Origin: Candidatus Brevefilum sp.
GTDB taxonomy: Bacteria; Chloroflexota; Anaerolineae; Anaerolineales; Anaerolineaceae
Assembly (NCBI GenBank): GCA_029210815.1
Contig: JARGGB010000002.1
Location: 8,450-72,449 of the forward strand
DNA length: 64,000 nucleotides
Direction of reading: 5' to 3'
The notes under the pieces are model-generated. The model did not search any database. It was given only the letters and a program-made list of their open reading frames with translations, and was not told the DNA's origin. The translations under genes were made by a program, and so were the position numbers. Positions 15,404 to 62,537 of the stretch are shown piece after piece; position 1 is the first letter of the stretch; the number at the start of each line of letters is the position of its first letter.

Positions 15404-15512
15404 TGCCCGGGTAGGATTCCCGGCGGCACCCAGAGATACCTCCTTACCGCTGCTTCCTCTCGGACCTGACGGGGTTCGTAGGGCTCCGCCGCGCCGGTCC
15501 CACCCGGACGGC
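15404..15512 (-). ncRNA. ffs: Small bacterial SRP RNA (4.5S)
   Basis: Helix-8 signature TCAGGTCCGAGAGGAAGCAGC within a long hairpin with complementary ends; TTGACA (about 15545-15540) and TATTCT (15522-15517) upstream. Confidence 0.93.
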
Positions 15513-32782: not shown

Positions 32783-32810
32783 CCCTCACGTCGTGCCTCC
32801 TGAGGGCAGG
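32783..32810 (-). repeat. Isolated copy of the REP internal core
   Basis: Minus strand CCTGCCCTCAGGAGGCACGACGTGAGGG, 26/28 identical to the core inside the REP at about 56386. Confidence 0.7.
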
Positions 32811-44170: not shown

Positions 44171-44401
44171 CGAGAAGGCATCAACATTCTATTGACGAGT
44201 TTCAGATTCTCAATTATTGTTAAGCTATCAAGACAATTGTGGAGCGGGCATGTTCTTCATTCAGGGACAACTGAGCGAGAACAGATGCGGGGATTGGACC
44301 GAGATGCCCGCTTATTTTTATTTAATCCTGCAATCCACAGAATTGGGTATAACTTGAAAATGTTTTATTAACCTCACCAAACCATATTAATAGGAGAGAC
44401 T

Positions 44402-45688
44402 ATGTCAGAAACAACAAATGCATTTGCAATGGCTCAACAGCAATTCGATCATGTTGCGGATCTGTTGGGCCTTGATCAACAGGTGCGCGAGATGCTGCGG
44501 TGGCCGATGCGAGAATTCCATCTGCGAATCCCAGTCCGTATGGATGACGGCAGCATCCGTGTTTTCCAGGGTTTTCGTGTACAGCATAACGATGCGCGTG
44601 GACCGAATAAGGGCGGATTGCGTTTTCACCCGGCGGAAACCATTGATACAGTACGCGCCCTGGCGATGTGGATGACCTGGAAGTGCGCTGTCGCGGATAT
44701 CCCCCTGGGCGGTGGTAAGGGCGGTGTCGTCCTTGACCCGGCAACACTGTCTGTAGACGAAAAAGAACGCTTATGCCGAGCCTTTGTTCGCAATCTCTGG
44801 CGTGAAGTTGGCCCGCGGCAGGATGTCCCTGCACCTGATGTAGGCACGACCCCCCAGATGATGGGATGGATGATGGACGAATATTCCCGCATTACAGGGC
44901 AATATACCCCTGGTGTGATCACAGGCAAACCTGTTGGCGGCGGTGGTTCCCTTGGGCGAACGGAAGCAACTGGCTTTGGCGTCATTTACACCATCAGGGA
45001 AGCCATGAAGCGTTTGAATATTGACTCGAGCAAGGCAACAGCAGCCATTCAAGGATTTGGCAATGTGGCACAGTACGCAGCCAAAGGTTTCATTGCGCAC
45101 CTGGGCGGTAAAGTGATTTGCGTCAGTTACTGGGATCGCGATGATCGCAAGGCTTATACCGTTAGCAAGGCTGATGGGATCGACCCGGACCTCTTAATGA
45201 GCATCACGGATCAGTACGGTTCAATCAATAAGGATGCAGCCGTAAAAGCCGGCTATGCAATTGAATCTGGTGATGCCTGGATAAGCAAAGAAGTGGATGT
45301 GTTGATCCCGGCTGCCCTTGAGGGACAGATCAATGGCGAAAGCGTTCATCTTATCAACAAGCGTGTAAAGATTTTGGCAGAAGGTGCCAACGGCCCAACC
45401 ACACCTGAAGCAGATGAAGTTCTTAAGGAACGTGGCATCTTTGTGATCCCTGACTTCTTGTGCAATGCTGGTGGTGTGACGACCTCTTACTTTGAAGGCG
45501 TTCAAAATGATATGAACTTCTATTGGACCAAGAAAGAGGTCCTTGAGAAGCTGGATGACAAAATGACGCAGGCTTTTGACGGCGTTTATGAAATGGCACA
45601 ATCTCAGAATGTGTTCATGCGCGATGCTGCCTATATGGTGGCAATTGATCGTGTTGTAAAGGCAATGGAATTGCGCGGCTGGCTCTAA
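44402..45688 (+). CDS. gdhA: Glu/Leu/Phe/Val dehydrogenase (glutamate dehydrogenase)
   Basis: GPNKGGLRF, GGGKGG, DVPAPDV, TGKP, QGFGNV, EGANGP, NAGGV. Confidence 0.93.
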   Translation: MSETTNAFAMAQQQFDHVADLLGLDQQVREMLRWPMREFHLRIPVRMDDGSIRVFQGFRVQHNDARGPNKGGLRFHPAETIDTVRALAMWMTWKCAVADIPLGGGKGGVVLDPATLSVDEKERLCRAFVRNLWREVGPRQDVPAPDVGTTPQMMGWMMDEYSRITGQYTPGVITGKPVGGGGSLGRTEATGFGVIYTIREAMKRLNIDSSKATAAIQGFGNVAQYAAKGFIAHLGGKVICVSYWDRDDRKAYTVSKADGIDPDLLMSITDQYGSINKDAAVKAGYAIESGDAWISKEVDVLIPAALEGQINGESVHLINKRVKILAEGANGPTTPEADEVLKERGIFVIPDFLCNAGGVTTSYFEGVQNDMNFYWTKKEVLEKLDDKMTQAFDGVYEMAQSQNVFMRDAAYMVAIDRVVKAMELRGWL

Positions 45689-45707
45689 AAGCTCGTTTTT
45701 CGGAAGG

Positions 45708-45736
45708 AAAACCCCCGGCAATCGTCGGGGGTTTTT
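45708..45736 (+). terminator. Intrinsic terminator after gdhA
   Basis: AAAACCCCCGGC-AATC-GTCGGGGGTTTTT. Confidence 0.85.
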
Positions 45737-45749
45737 GTTTAATTAATTT

Positions 45750-45780
45750 TTGACAAAATTTTAAAAACATATGCTATAAT
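45750..45780 (+). promoter_or_regulatory. Extended -10 promoter with no downstream + strand gene
   Basis: TTGACA (45750) and TG-C-TATAAT (45772-45780); spacer is 19 nt. Confidence 0.6.
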
Positions 45781-45784
45781 TGTT

Positions 45785-45835
45785 ATGGAGACAGCGTCAG
45801 CAGGATGCCCCCCTCATCCTTGGCGCTGTTTCCAT
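45785..45835 (+). ncRNA. Candidate small RNA hairpin with C-rich loop
   Basis: 15-bp stem plus 6-bp stem, loop CCCCCCT, starting 5 nt after the -10 box. Confidence 0.5.
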
Positions 45836-45978
45836 TTAAACTAAAGTGTCAAGCAAATAAGTCCTATTAAGTTTCTTGATACTTTATGTATAAAGTCGGC
45901 CTGAAGGCTTCGCTCCGAATATTAAGAATGAGAAAGCACTTGAAATGCATTGAGTTTTTAGTTTGATAATTTCAATTT

Positions 45979-46983
45979 CTACTCTTCGTTTGTGATGATG
46001 ATCAGCGTGTTGCTGCTGAAGGCATAATAATTTTCCGGAATTTTGTCGTTGTACATCAGGTGATCTCTCAGTGCGTAAGCAAAGGGGCTCTGGTCCACCA
46101 GGCGATCAAAATCATCCAGTTCAAAGAAGGGCTGGTACCGTGCAGCAAGGTAAGCTGCTCTGCCCATATCCAATTTAATTTGCGGCCAATCATCTTTGGG
46201 GAACAGGATCGGGTGGTCCGCCAGAAGGATTAAGTCATCAGGAAGATCCGGTAATAATGCCTGCAAATCTTTCAAGAACAGCATTGGGTAATCCGATTCT
46301 CGTAATTCATATTCCCGGTTTGCATCACGATGTGTAATGTAGGGGTCAAAGGGCTGTGAAGATTCTCGCACCTGCATTTGTATGTAGGCTGTGCCGCCTG
46401 CGGGGATATCCTCAATCGGGATGTTTTCCCCGGGGGTACCCCCCAGGACCAGCTGCATTGGATAAGGCACCCCATTGAATTCATGGGTGACATTTAGATA
46501 ATAAACGGTAATGGTTTGGTCCAAAAAGTCAAAATTGCGCAGGTGGATCGCCCTGTCAAGGAGTTGAAATCCCATAAAAGCCCACAGGTCATTGATCTCG
46601 TTCAGGCGGTTGAAGCCAATGCGAGTGATATGGGCGTAGGACCAATCAACAGTTTTTCCATTCACGTCTTTATAAGGGAATAAGACCGACGGACGTGCCT
46701 CTACCGAAGTGGGCGTTGGGGTGAAGGTCAGGCTTGGGTAAGGGGTGAGGGTTATGGTTGGTGTATTGGATGGGCGCGGGGTGATTGTGTTTGCCGGCGT
46801 TTTTGTGTGGGTCGGTGTGGGTGTTGGGGTGATGGTTGGCGTGCGTGTCTCGGTTGGGCTGGGGGACAGCGTTAATGTGCTCGTTGGTGTTGGTGAGGCA
46901 TTTGCACCGCATCCCAGTAAAATTAACAACGTTAACAGGCTTGTGATCAATAAGATGGCTTTTTTTGCAGTCTGAGCAGGCAT
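45979..46983 (-). CDS. Hypothetical lipoprotein with Pro/Thr-rich linker
   Basis: Lipobox LLGC, about 50-aa PT repeats, unrecognised globular domain. Confidence 0.75.
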   Translation of the reverse strand: MPAQTAKKAILLITSLLTLLILLGCGANASPTPTSTLTLSPSPTETRTPTITPTPTPTHTKTPANTITPRPSNTPTITLTPYPSLTFTPTPTSVEARPSVLFPYKDVNGKTVDWSYAHITRIGFNRLNEINDLWAFMGFQLLDRAIHLRNFDFLDQTITVYYLNVTHEFNGVPYPMQLVLGGTPGENIPIEDIPAGGTAYIQMQVRESSQPFDPYITHRDANREYELRESDYPMLFLKDLQALLPDLPDDLILLADHPILFPKDDWPQIKLDMGRAAYLAARYQPFFELDDFDRLVDQSPFAYALRDHLMYNDKIPENYYAFSSNTLIIITNEE

Positions 46984-56353: not shown

Positions 56354-56366
56354 ATTCGATCAGCTT

Positions 56367-56565
56367 GTAGGGCGGGATGCGGTTTCCTGCCCTGAGGAGG
56401 AACGACGTGAGGGTCATCCCGCCGATTTTGTGCATCCCATTTTAAATAGATTCGGTTAGACAGGGTTGATATTTGAGACATGCCTGTCTGTTGGTTCAGG
56501 TCGGGAGACCTGAACCATCTTCGCGATGACAAAAAGCGGGATGAAAAACTCATCCCGCCGATTTT
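56367..56565. repeat. GTAG-type REP composite element
   Basis: GTAG-GGCGGGATG...CATCCCGCC, conserved spacer, palindrome GGTTCAGGTC-GGGA-GACCTGAACC, then GCGGGATG-AAAAACT-CATCCCGC. Confidence 0.8.
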
Positions 56566-60447: not shown

Positions 60448-60521
60448 CGGGGTGTAGCGCAGTCGGCCAGCGCGCCGCGTTTGGGACGCGGAGGTCGGCG
60501 GTTCAAGTCCGCCCACCCCGA
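60448..60521 (+). tRNA. tRNA-Pro (UGG)
   Basis: CGGGGTG/CACCCCG acceptor stem, anticodon arm CCGCG-TTTGGGA-CGCGG, GGTTCAAGTCC T-arm; the full CCA is not encoded. Confidence 0.96.
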
Positions 60522-61343: not shown

Positions 61344-62004
61344 GTTTGACCTTTCGAGTTTGCCTGACCATCCGGATTTATCCTTTGAAAACAAATTATG
61401 GGGTGAGGGGCTGCGCTTTGTCGCTGGTGTGGATGAGGCCGGTCGCGGCGCGCTGGCAGGGCCGGTTGCGGCAGGGGCTGTTGTGCTTCCTTGCGACTTG
61501 CCCGATCTGGCCAATCTGCTTGAGGGAGTGAATGATTCTAAGGTGATGACACCCGCAGAGCGAGAAGCGAAGGCTGAAATTATCCGGGCTGTTGCATTTA
61601 GATGGGGCGTGGGCTTTGCCACTTCGGCTGAAATTGACCGGATTGGTATTCTGCCGGCAACCTGCCTGGCAGTCAGCAGGGCAATATTAGAATTGAAGTT
61701 GGAATTAGAGCATGTTTTGGTGGATTACCTGCGTTTGCCTGATTTGGATGTCCCACAGACCCCGCTTGTCAAAGGCGATGCCCGCTGCCTGTCGATTGCG
61801 GCAGCGTCGATCCTGGCGAAAACGGCGAGGGATGCTGTCCTGGTAGAAATGGATGGCACCTATCCCGGGTATTATTTTGCCAGCAACAAAGGTTATGGCA
61901 CCCAGGCACACAGGCAGGCGATCGCGCAGTTAGGCCCCTGTGACCAGCATCGTAAAACCTTTTCACCGGTGAAGGATTATTATTCCCTGTTCCCGCCGGA
62001 ATAA
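61327..62004 (+). CDS. rnhB: Ribonuclease HII
   Basis: GVDEAGRG.LAGPV, DSK, KGD...SIAAASILAK..RD, KGYGT..H. Confidence 0.96.
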   Translation: MTPRHKFDLSSLPDHPDLSFENKLWGEGLRFVAGVDEAGRGALAGPVAAGAVVLPCDLPDLANLLEGVNDSKVMTPAEREAKAEIIRAVAFRWGVGFATSAEIDRIGILPATCLAVSRAILELKLELEHVLVDYLRLPDLDVPQTPLVKGDARCLSIAAASILAKTARDAVLVEMDGTYPGYYFASNKGYGTQAHRQAIAQLGPCDQHRKTFSPVKDYYSLFPPE

Positions 62005-62009
62005 TCTAT

Positions 62010-62537
62010 GTAGGGTGGGATGCGGTCCTGCACTGAGGAGGGACGACGTGAGTGTCATCCCGCCGATTTTGTGTATTCCATTCCAAATATATTCGGTCAG
62101 ACAGGGTTGATAATGGAGACATGCCTGTGATGGTGCGTGGAAAGGCACCACGCACCCTACGAGGATGTTTGTAGTATTAATGCATTCCATAACAAATGAA
62201 TTCGGTCAGACAAGGTTGATATTGGAGACATGCCTGTGATGGTGCGGTGAAGAACGCACCGCACCCTACGGATATGTTTGTAGGGCGGGATGCGGTCCTG
62301 CACTGAGGAGGGACGACGTGAGTGTCATCCCGCCGATTTTGTACATTCAATTCCAAACAAATTTGGTAAGACAAGGATGATATTGGAGACATGTCTGTGA
62401 TGGTGCGGTGAAGAACGCACCGCACCCTACAAAAATACAAAGATTTTATGCATTCCATTCCAAATATATTCGGTCAGACAAGGTTGATATTGGAGACATG
62501 CCTGTGATGGTGCGTGGAAAGGTACCACGCACCCTAC
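62010..62537. repeat. Tandem REP/BIME-like array
   Basis: Two forward GTAG-GGYGGGATG...CATCCCGCC units (62010, 62280) and four reverse GGTGCG...CGCACC-CTAC units (ending 62160, 62269, 62430, 62537) joined by a conserved spacer. Confidence 0.88.

Follow-up and report, generated by a model that had tools for sequence, protein, structure and literature searches.

RsaE/RoxS and Staphylococcus aureus RNAIII are transcribed from their own promoters, end at rho-independent terminators and expose C-rich unpaired motifs to G-rich sites resembling the Shine-Dalgarno (SD) sequence. These Firmicutes RNAs are at least about 100 nt long and carry several UCCC or CCCC motifs in varied structural contexts. 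The CcsR1-4 'cuckoo' RNAs of Rhodobacter, which also bear C-rich loop motifs, are encoded by tandem gene copies, each form two hairpins whose loops read CCUCCUCCC, and share the transcript of an upstream gene without individual promoters. The actinobacterial 6C RNA combines at least two C-rich hairpins with a terminator, and its C-rich loops pair with G-rich mRNA sites independently of a chaperone (PMC6486639). In Xanthomonas, the Hfq-independent RNA sX13 represses mRNAs with G-rich motifs near the start codon (PMC3771888); it displays three stem-loops with 4-5 C each.

Here, we describe a locus of Candidatus Brevefilum sp. (Anaerolineae; Chloroflexota) between the terminator of gdhA and a convergent gene, located in a stretch of 64,000 nucleotides that was analysed as a whole and is referred to as the window. 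Its predicted product resembles the 6C RNA in being a small stand-alone RNA whose C-rich loop, like the 6C loops with their at least six C residues, is conserved across a high-ranking taxon; unlike the 6C RNA, it consists of one hairpin, with the loop lying within the probable terminator. The apical C-rich loop on a stable stem recalls sX13, but only one such loop is present, and G-rich ribosome-binding-site motifs, found in about 5% of Xanthomonas genes, occur in 2 of 468 ORFs here. An own promoter and a C-rich motif are shared with RsaE/RoxS and RNAIII, from which the window RNA differs in its predicted length of about 52 nt, its single C run and its host lineage; moreover, the local SD sequences AGGAG and GGAGG are not complementary to its loop. 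Tandem pairs reminiscent of the CcsR genes recur in four loci of the same family (L101, L162, L155 and L143), but each copy there has its own promoter. Finally, an ordinary intrinsic terminator also consists of a G+C-rich hairpin followed by U residues, whereas the element described here has, in addition, a dedicated promoter 4-6 nt upstream and a loop sequence fixed across an order. The features of the locus are as follows.

45707-45736, + strand: intrinsic terminator of gdhA, from a terminator scan; symmetric, with an A run before it and a T run after it
45750-45755, + strand: -35-like hexamer TTGACA, 19 nt upstream of the -10; TTGGTA and TTATTA in orthologues
45772-45780, + strand: extended -10 TGcTATAAT, in which TATAAT (45775-45780) is preceded by TGn
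45786-45788, + strand: predicted site of transcription initiation, G45787 +/- 1, seven nt beyond the -10
45787-45840, + strand: predicted small RNA (sRNA) of about 52-54 nt; dG -29.3, z -6.9
45787-45799, + strand: 5' arm of the outer stem, GGAGACAGCGUCA; from the fold and the type-A family alignment (91.4% paired)
45800-45801, + strand: bulge or internal loop GC, 2 nt; from the fold, variable among type-A members
45802-45807, + strand: 5' arm of the apical stem, AGGAUG; unchanged in the five synteny orthologues
45808-45814, + strand: heptaloop CCCCCCU, the most conserved element and presumed functional site
45815-45820, + strand: 3' arm of the apical stem, CAUCCU; same basis as the 5' arm
45821-45833, + strand: 3' arm of the outer stem, UGGCGCUGUUUCC; from the fold and the type-A alignment
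45834-45840, + strand: tail AUUUAAA, a weak U run and likely 3' end; conservation ends at 45839/45840
45867-45950, - strand, and 45886-45966, + strand: short ORFs beside the hairpin
45979-46983, - strand: convergent neighbour gene, 334 aa, no Pfam domain

The hairpin (45785-45835) comprises 15 outer pairs, the GC bulge, six apical pairs and the heptaloop. Folded as + strand RNA it reaches a dG of -30.4 kcal/mol (z -8.2), a value matched by none of 200 shuffles. The - strand folds less stably (-23.8 kcal/mol, z -3.7), because the wobble pairs G45790.U45830 and U45797.G45823 become A.C mismatches there. An earlier note, made from the letters of the window, had described a 21-bp hairpin with two G-U pairs that fix the + strand, preceded by TTGACA and TATAAT directly after the gdhA terminator and followed by a convergent gene, so that no mRNA is available for it to lead; the sequence, the folds of both strands and the - strand orientation of 45979-46983 agree with this description. 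The outermost pairs (45785/45786 with 45834/45835) are absent in orthologues, and the conserved stem begins at G45787.

The same note called the promoter strong and placed the hairpin 5 nt beyond TATAAT. Any such strength would come from the extended -10, as TTGACA with its 19-nt spacer is peculiar to the window genome: compared with L082 and L083, the -35 region is 70% identical and the hexamer itself has changed. The 19-nt spacing also explains why the promoter is missing from a consensus scan that allows 16-18 nt. The hairpin does follow TATAAT, although A45785 lies only 4 nt away. From the promoter geometry and the onset of stem conservation, transcription is predicted to start at G45787 +/- 1; across the family, a start 7 nt past the -10 would fall on the first or second stem nucleotide. 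At the other end, the window copy has a tail of UUUAAA with 3 U only, whereas most family members, among the matches listed, have 4-7 U within 8 nt after the stem. The hairpin probably terminates its own transcript.

Orthologues were reached through homologues of the 334-aa neighbour protein (96-75% identical), which led to the syntenic contigs L081-L085; the sRNA element is kept in all five. Identity between the window and L082/L083 is 100% in the extended -10, 14% in the 7-nt spacer that follows, 95.6% in the hairpin core (45788-45832) and 46% downstream (45841-45978). Metagenome contigs of related strains jump over 45840-45979, a hot spot of turnover. Given the decay of the spacer and the downstream DNA and the skipping of 45840-45979, the conserved unit can be delimited as the -10 plus the hairpin, ending at about 45840. 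The joints of the related strains (45839>45976/45980 and 45834>45985) were seen in four metagenomes, and in other strains unrelated sequence replaces the stretch. Within the hairpin, the pair G45787-C45833 has become A-U in L082 and L083, C45798 has become U, creating a U.G pair, and in L085 C45826 has become U, creating a G.U pair; judged as substitutions, these changes fit an RNA read from the + strand.

Several observations concern the neighbouring DNA. The gdhA gene (44402-45688) encodes the ELFV dehydrogenase domains, and its terminator is the upstream boundary, outside the sRNA unit. An exact-match look-up returned no record of the GdhA protein sequence, and its closest relatives in named genomes, at 80% identity or less, belong to Anaerolineaceae and Anaerolineae metagenome-assembled genomes (MAGs), which places the window in Chloroflexota and not in Firmicutes. 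At 80 gdhA loci of named genomes (gdhA 61-80% identical), neither BLAST nor covariance model R1 found an intergenic homologue and synteny was lost; the linkage to gdhA is therefore restricted to a subclade. In the 5' leader of gdhA (window approximately 44372-44390), a conserved AACCTCACCAAACCA precedes the SD AGGAGAG by about 10-15 nt in 11 loci, the others being L082, L084, L085, L099, L117, L123, L125, L135, L174 and L183. This leader motif may be a cis-regulatory element; it has CCUCAYC in common with the 3' side of the sRNA head. On the other flank, the 334-aa protein, with a lipoprotein-like N-terminus and a long Pro/Thr-rich linker, has more than 250 homologues and represents a conserved family, whose organism-named members come from Anaerolineaceae or Brevefilum. 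In addition, a dispersed repeat with the core CCTCACGTCGTGCCTCCTSAGGGCAGG is present in at least four copies in the window, against none expected by chance.

32784-32810, + strand: CCTCACGTCGTGCCTCCTSAGGGCAGG repeat copy
56386-56412, - strand: CCTCACGTCGTGCCTCCTSAGGGCAGG repeat copy
62027-62053, - strand: CCTCACGTCGTGCCTCCTSAGGGCAGG repeat copy
62297-62323, - strand: CCTCACGTCGTGCCTCCTSAGGGCAGG repeat copy
56363-56519 and 62004-62537: 157-nt units of the repeat

In the orthologue L084, the same core motif occupies part of the DNA separating the sRNA from the 334-aa gene; it also occurs at loose ends at 45902 and 45964 in run X27. The repeat looks like a small mobile element that lands beside the sRNA in relatives.

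Beyond the synteny orthologues, the apical 19-mer AGGATGCCCCCCTCATCCT, searched for as an exact match, was present in at least 120 stretches of metagenome contigs, while viral contigs contained none. About 110 of the matches listed share the same layout, namely a -35, a TAnAAT -10, 4-6 nt, the hairpin and a U run; seven or eight are G+C-rich coding matches. Two types can be distinguished. Type A, to which the window copy conforms, has a TGnTAnAAT promoter, an outer stem GAAGRCAGCG/CGCUGUYUUC and a small internal loop, whereas in type B the outer stem is an unbroken run of 11 pairs, which may have any sequence, and a strong U tail comes next. In a gapless alignment of 80 distinct type-B copies among the matches listed, 95.9% of cells are paired, compared with 71.4% in shuffles and 33-54% in slid controls, and both-side changes amount to 317 cells versus 79. 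Covariation extends to all 11 outer pairs, with 4-6 pair types each, and every one of the approximately 145 wobble cells (about 122 U.G and 23 G.U) is a mismatch on the opposite strand, on which the family's covariance-model scores drop to about half. The type-A alignment (28 sequences, among the matches listed) is 91.4% paired, against 38-53% when slid. Judging from these alignments, the outer stem is free to vary in sequence provided that pairing holds. Homologue search and covariation, which the earlier note had proposed as a check, have thus revealed a large family with massively covarying stems. Member loci range from 31 to 64% G+C. The neighbour proteins of two type-B loci, L101 and L177 (64% G+C), are nearest to proteins of Anaerolineales or Chloroflexota MAGs, and the family is found here only in Anaerolineae.

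In this family, the position of the promoter is tied to that of the hairpin. Among the matches listed, the distance from the end of the -10 to the first stem pair is 4-6 nt in 96 of 112 copies of both types. Measured to the apical core, the -10 ends 15-17 nt ahead in 70 of 83 type-B copies and 20-22 nt ahead in 26 of 29 type-A copies, the extended TGn being present in 26 of the 29 type-A members listed. As the spacing is fixed although stem lengths differ by about 5 nt between the subtypes, the -10 tracks the foot of the stem. In one type-B subgroup (L090, L140, L186 and L204), TTGGGGGAG occupies the -35 position of the sRNA promoter; in DNA this is a G run, complementary to the sRNA loop.

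The 19-mer used for the scan includes the loop, and the conservation of the loop was therefore assessed in 12 distinct copies found independently of it: the five synteny orthologues, tandem paralogues in L101, L162, L155 and L143 (detected with covariance model R1, each with its own promoter) and recN-adjacent orthologues reached through RecN homologues (seven contigs, three distinct sequences). CCCCCCU is kept in all 12, one of which reads C7U; since these copies were found without the 19-mer, the loop can be regarded as the fixed element. The apical stem, identical in the five synteny orthologues, shows compensatory or wobble changes elsewhere in this set (AGGGUG/CACCCU, UGGGUG/CACCCA and GGGAUG/CAUCCU), within a family consensus of GGRUG/CAYCC. 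By this comparison, the apical stem is structural yet unusually constrained in sequence.

Covariance model R1 matches the window once (36.9 bits, E 5e-9), and the match is still single with filters off. Each member locus has either a single copy or a tandem pair, and about 0.56 Mb of member loci contained no copies beyond the anchor copy and four tandem partners, which sets a rough bound of fewer than about 20 copies per genome. The earlier note would have taken many dispersed copies as the mark of a repeat; the copies are indeed many, but they lie in different genomes, singly or in tandem, and differ by compensatory changes. Among the matches listed, 89 loci have a gene no more than 300 nt away, and at 67 of them the downstream gene is convergent. 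Neighbour genes are mutually unrelated from locus to locus, and no conserved co-directional gene follows, as would be expected of a 5' leader. A common type-A order is gdhA, sRNA and convergent dnaK, and at the RecN loci and L149 a separate terminator stands after the sRNA. Given these separate terminators and the unrelated, mostly convergent neighbours, the element is neither a leader nor the mere terminator of a neighbour.

The contexts of individual loci include further elements. In many type-A loci, dnaK (HSP70 Pfam) is the convergent neighbour of the sRNA. About 35 nt before the dnaK SD, L087, L099, L123, L133, L160, L167, L174 and L203 carry a conserved inverted repeat (e.g., TTGAGTATCCTCATACTAAG), which is similar to the HAIR/HspR-type heat-shock operator. 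At the RecN loci L207, L208 and L211, the element immediately preceding the sRNA is a tRNA-like gene, which has a TGTGTATAAT promoter of its own; read by eye, its anticodon loop is CUCCUAA (Arg-CCU). In L142 (1159-1340), CRISPR repeats with sub-threshold Rfam CRISPR-DR matches precede the sRNA by about 90 nt, and a gene for a RAMP-superfamily protein is upstream in L145; both are probably coincidental.

Searches for described RNAs returned nothing comparable. At gathering score, Rfam 15 has no family for the hairpin in the whole window and no family match at 15 family loci. Relaxing the threshold to E <= 10 at 45600-46100 gave only chance-level matches far below gathering (frnS, RsaJ and others), which the neighbouring gdhA terminator drives. 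The 6C RNA (RF01066) does not match at 45600-46100 even at E <= 10, nor in the whole window or the 15 loci, and there is no Rfam match to RsaE/RoxS (RF01820). A match to ncr1175 in L149 reached 36.5 bits versus 60 and reflects a generic hairpin plus the second terminator. As for tRNA or tmRNA, ARAGORN detected none, and a CsrA-type site, with GGA in the loop, does not fit an element that has GGA in the stem here and GGG in paralogues. A literature search found the loop-stem sequence on neither strand and no work on Anaerolineae sRNAs. The description of the RNA as undescribed in the earlier note therefore holds for Rfam 15 and the literature search. Elsewhere in the window, Rfam at gathering score identifies the signal recognition particle RNA and one tRNA, at 15406-15505 (-) and 60448-60521 (+).

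With regard to transcripts, the intergenic stretch alone as a query matched no RNA run. Eight RNA runs hold a type-B hairpin at depth 2-11; these shallow contigs span promoter and flanks and may thus represent DNA carry-over or read-through. One RNA-run contig extends from the hairpin into a co-directional gene. In run X25, the gdhA mRNA ends near its terminator and the hairpin is uncovered, while the even coverage throughout run X27 suggests DNA.

Candidate targets were sought at translation starts. In the SD window of 468 ORFs, AGGAG is found 101 times, GGAGG 56 times and GGGGG 3 times, and G5 runs are not enriched at ribosome-binding sites. Complementarity to the loop is no higher in the translation-start regions of the window than in coding sequence. 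The three best starts in the window belong to a methyltransferase gene (15203, -), rnhB (61327, +) and an MFS transporter gene (2808, -), and the start regions of gdhA and dnaK show no complementarity to the loop. The loop had been called anti-Shine-Dalgarno-like; it is indeed the complement of a G run, but not of the SD used here, which is AGGAG or GGAGG.

Taken as a unit of sequence, the element is conserved, structured, read from the + strand, coupled to its promoter and low in copy number, and it appears to be one member of a large, apparently undescribed Anaerolineae family of RNA genes, each a single hairpin of about 50 bases. The comparative evidence, that is, promoter spacing, covariation and the kept loop, upholds the earlier proposal of an independent structured RNA gene on the + strand without a leader role. 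We favor, with a probability of roughly 0.6, a stand-alone sRNA gene of about 52 nt in which the C-rich loop is the functional site and likely pairs in trans with G-rich mRNA stretches. In this proposal, an extended -10 sigma-70 promoter would start transcription at the foot of the 19-21-bp hairpin, and the hairpin with its short U tail would double as terminator, so that the whole RNA would be one hairpin of about 52 nt. The exposed C-rich loop would be the working part, blocking translation or altering the stability of a few mRNAs through pairing with their G-rich stretches. Pairing in trans with G-rich targets is probable by analogy with the 6C RNA, RsaE/RoxS and sX13, whose C-rich loops act in this way independently of a chaperone. 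As complementarity to the loop is enriched neither at SDs nor in start regions, a protein ligand is a serious rival, in our view unlikely but deserving attention: the RNA gene would be the same, with the GGRUG-C6U-CAYCC head binding a protein (for example a KH or poly(C)-type binder, a cold-shock protein or a nuclease) and the RNA acting as decoy, sponge or cofactor. The unenriched G runs at start sites would then be expected, and the apical stem is conserved beyond the needs of pairing, the changes seen in it being A-U to G-C, A-U to U-A and A to G only, whereas any sequence is tolerated in the outer stem, a pattern that a protein ligand fits equally well. However, the C-rich loops of known sRNAs work by pairing, neighbours vary without any linked candidate protein gene, and the placement of GGA outside the loop is a misfit for a CsrA-type protein. 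A more speculative reading, which we consider doubtful, is that the hairpin does not regulate mRNAs but is an order-wide minimal housekeeping RNA, with a fixed GGRUG-CCCCCCU-CAYCC head that would be bound by a conserved cellular machine (a protein, or a stable RNA through a G-rich segment).

It is improbable that the hairpin is a cis element, whether a terminator or insulator that also serves the convergent gene or an attenuator or leader of a downstream gene. The stop of a convergent gene is often only 0-50 nt from the hairpin, about 10 loci among the matches listed have a co-directional ORF within 40 nt, and the RNA-run contig reaching into a co-directional gene points the same way; but a plain terminator needs neither a fixed loop nor a promoter at a fixed distance, gdhA has a terminator of its own, as do the RecN loci and L149 after the sRNA, and downstream genes are unrelated and mostly convergent, with A.C mismatches in the stem when read from the - strand. 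We regard as very improbable a role as antitoxin RNA (type I or type III), which the earlier note had also suggested and which finds no support here: the RNA is small, strongly structured and flanked by the two short ORFs, but the DNA between the hairpin and the next gene that contains them is unconserved and absent from relatives, and the family has no conserved accompanying small ORF. A tiny protein gene has a next to negligible likelihood. Although RUG-CCC-CCC is present in all copies, the leaderless 19-codon frame mentioned in the earlier note is refuted by its start, since the ATG at 45785 reads TCA in L082 and L083 and ACG in L084; the internal frame from the AUG at 45805 (MPPSS...) runs from 5 to more than 20 codons across copies with no conserved end, and is frameshifted in the L143 paralogue. 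Its AUG is buried in the 19-21-bp helix without a spaced SD, and changes in the 3' arm track pairing, not codons. Equally remote is a dispersed REP- or MITE-like repeat or a palindrome acting at the DNA level as a protein-binding or recombination site. Metagenome copies are many, and in metagenome contigs the hairpin has 2-3 times the depth of its flanks, an excess that arises because other family members map to the conserved core; against both stand the single copy in 64 kb, the roughly 0.56 Mb of member loci free of further copies, the syntenic placement of orthologues, the lack of viral matches, and the compensatory differences together with wobble pairs that indicate one strand.

Anaerolineae are abundant in digesters, sediments and wastewater but hard to culture, and to our knowledge no regulatory RNA has been characterised in this class. 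The stand-alone sRNA gene described here offers an easily recognised RNA gene for these bacteria, with more than 100 natural variants that define its structure, and the covariance model could help to annotate genomes and metagenomes for this family. Its layout is close to the smallest conceivable for a riboregulator, with a promoter and one hairpin that would provide body, functional loop and terminator. If the head serves a housekeeping RNA, the family would represent a functional class new among bacterial RNAs, as well as the first Chloroflexota-specific non-coding RNA to be characterised; if the loop binds a protein, it would be a pointer to an RNA-protein system not yet described. Should the loop pair with G-rich targets, regulation by C-rich loops would have arisen independently in a fourth phylum-level lineage.
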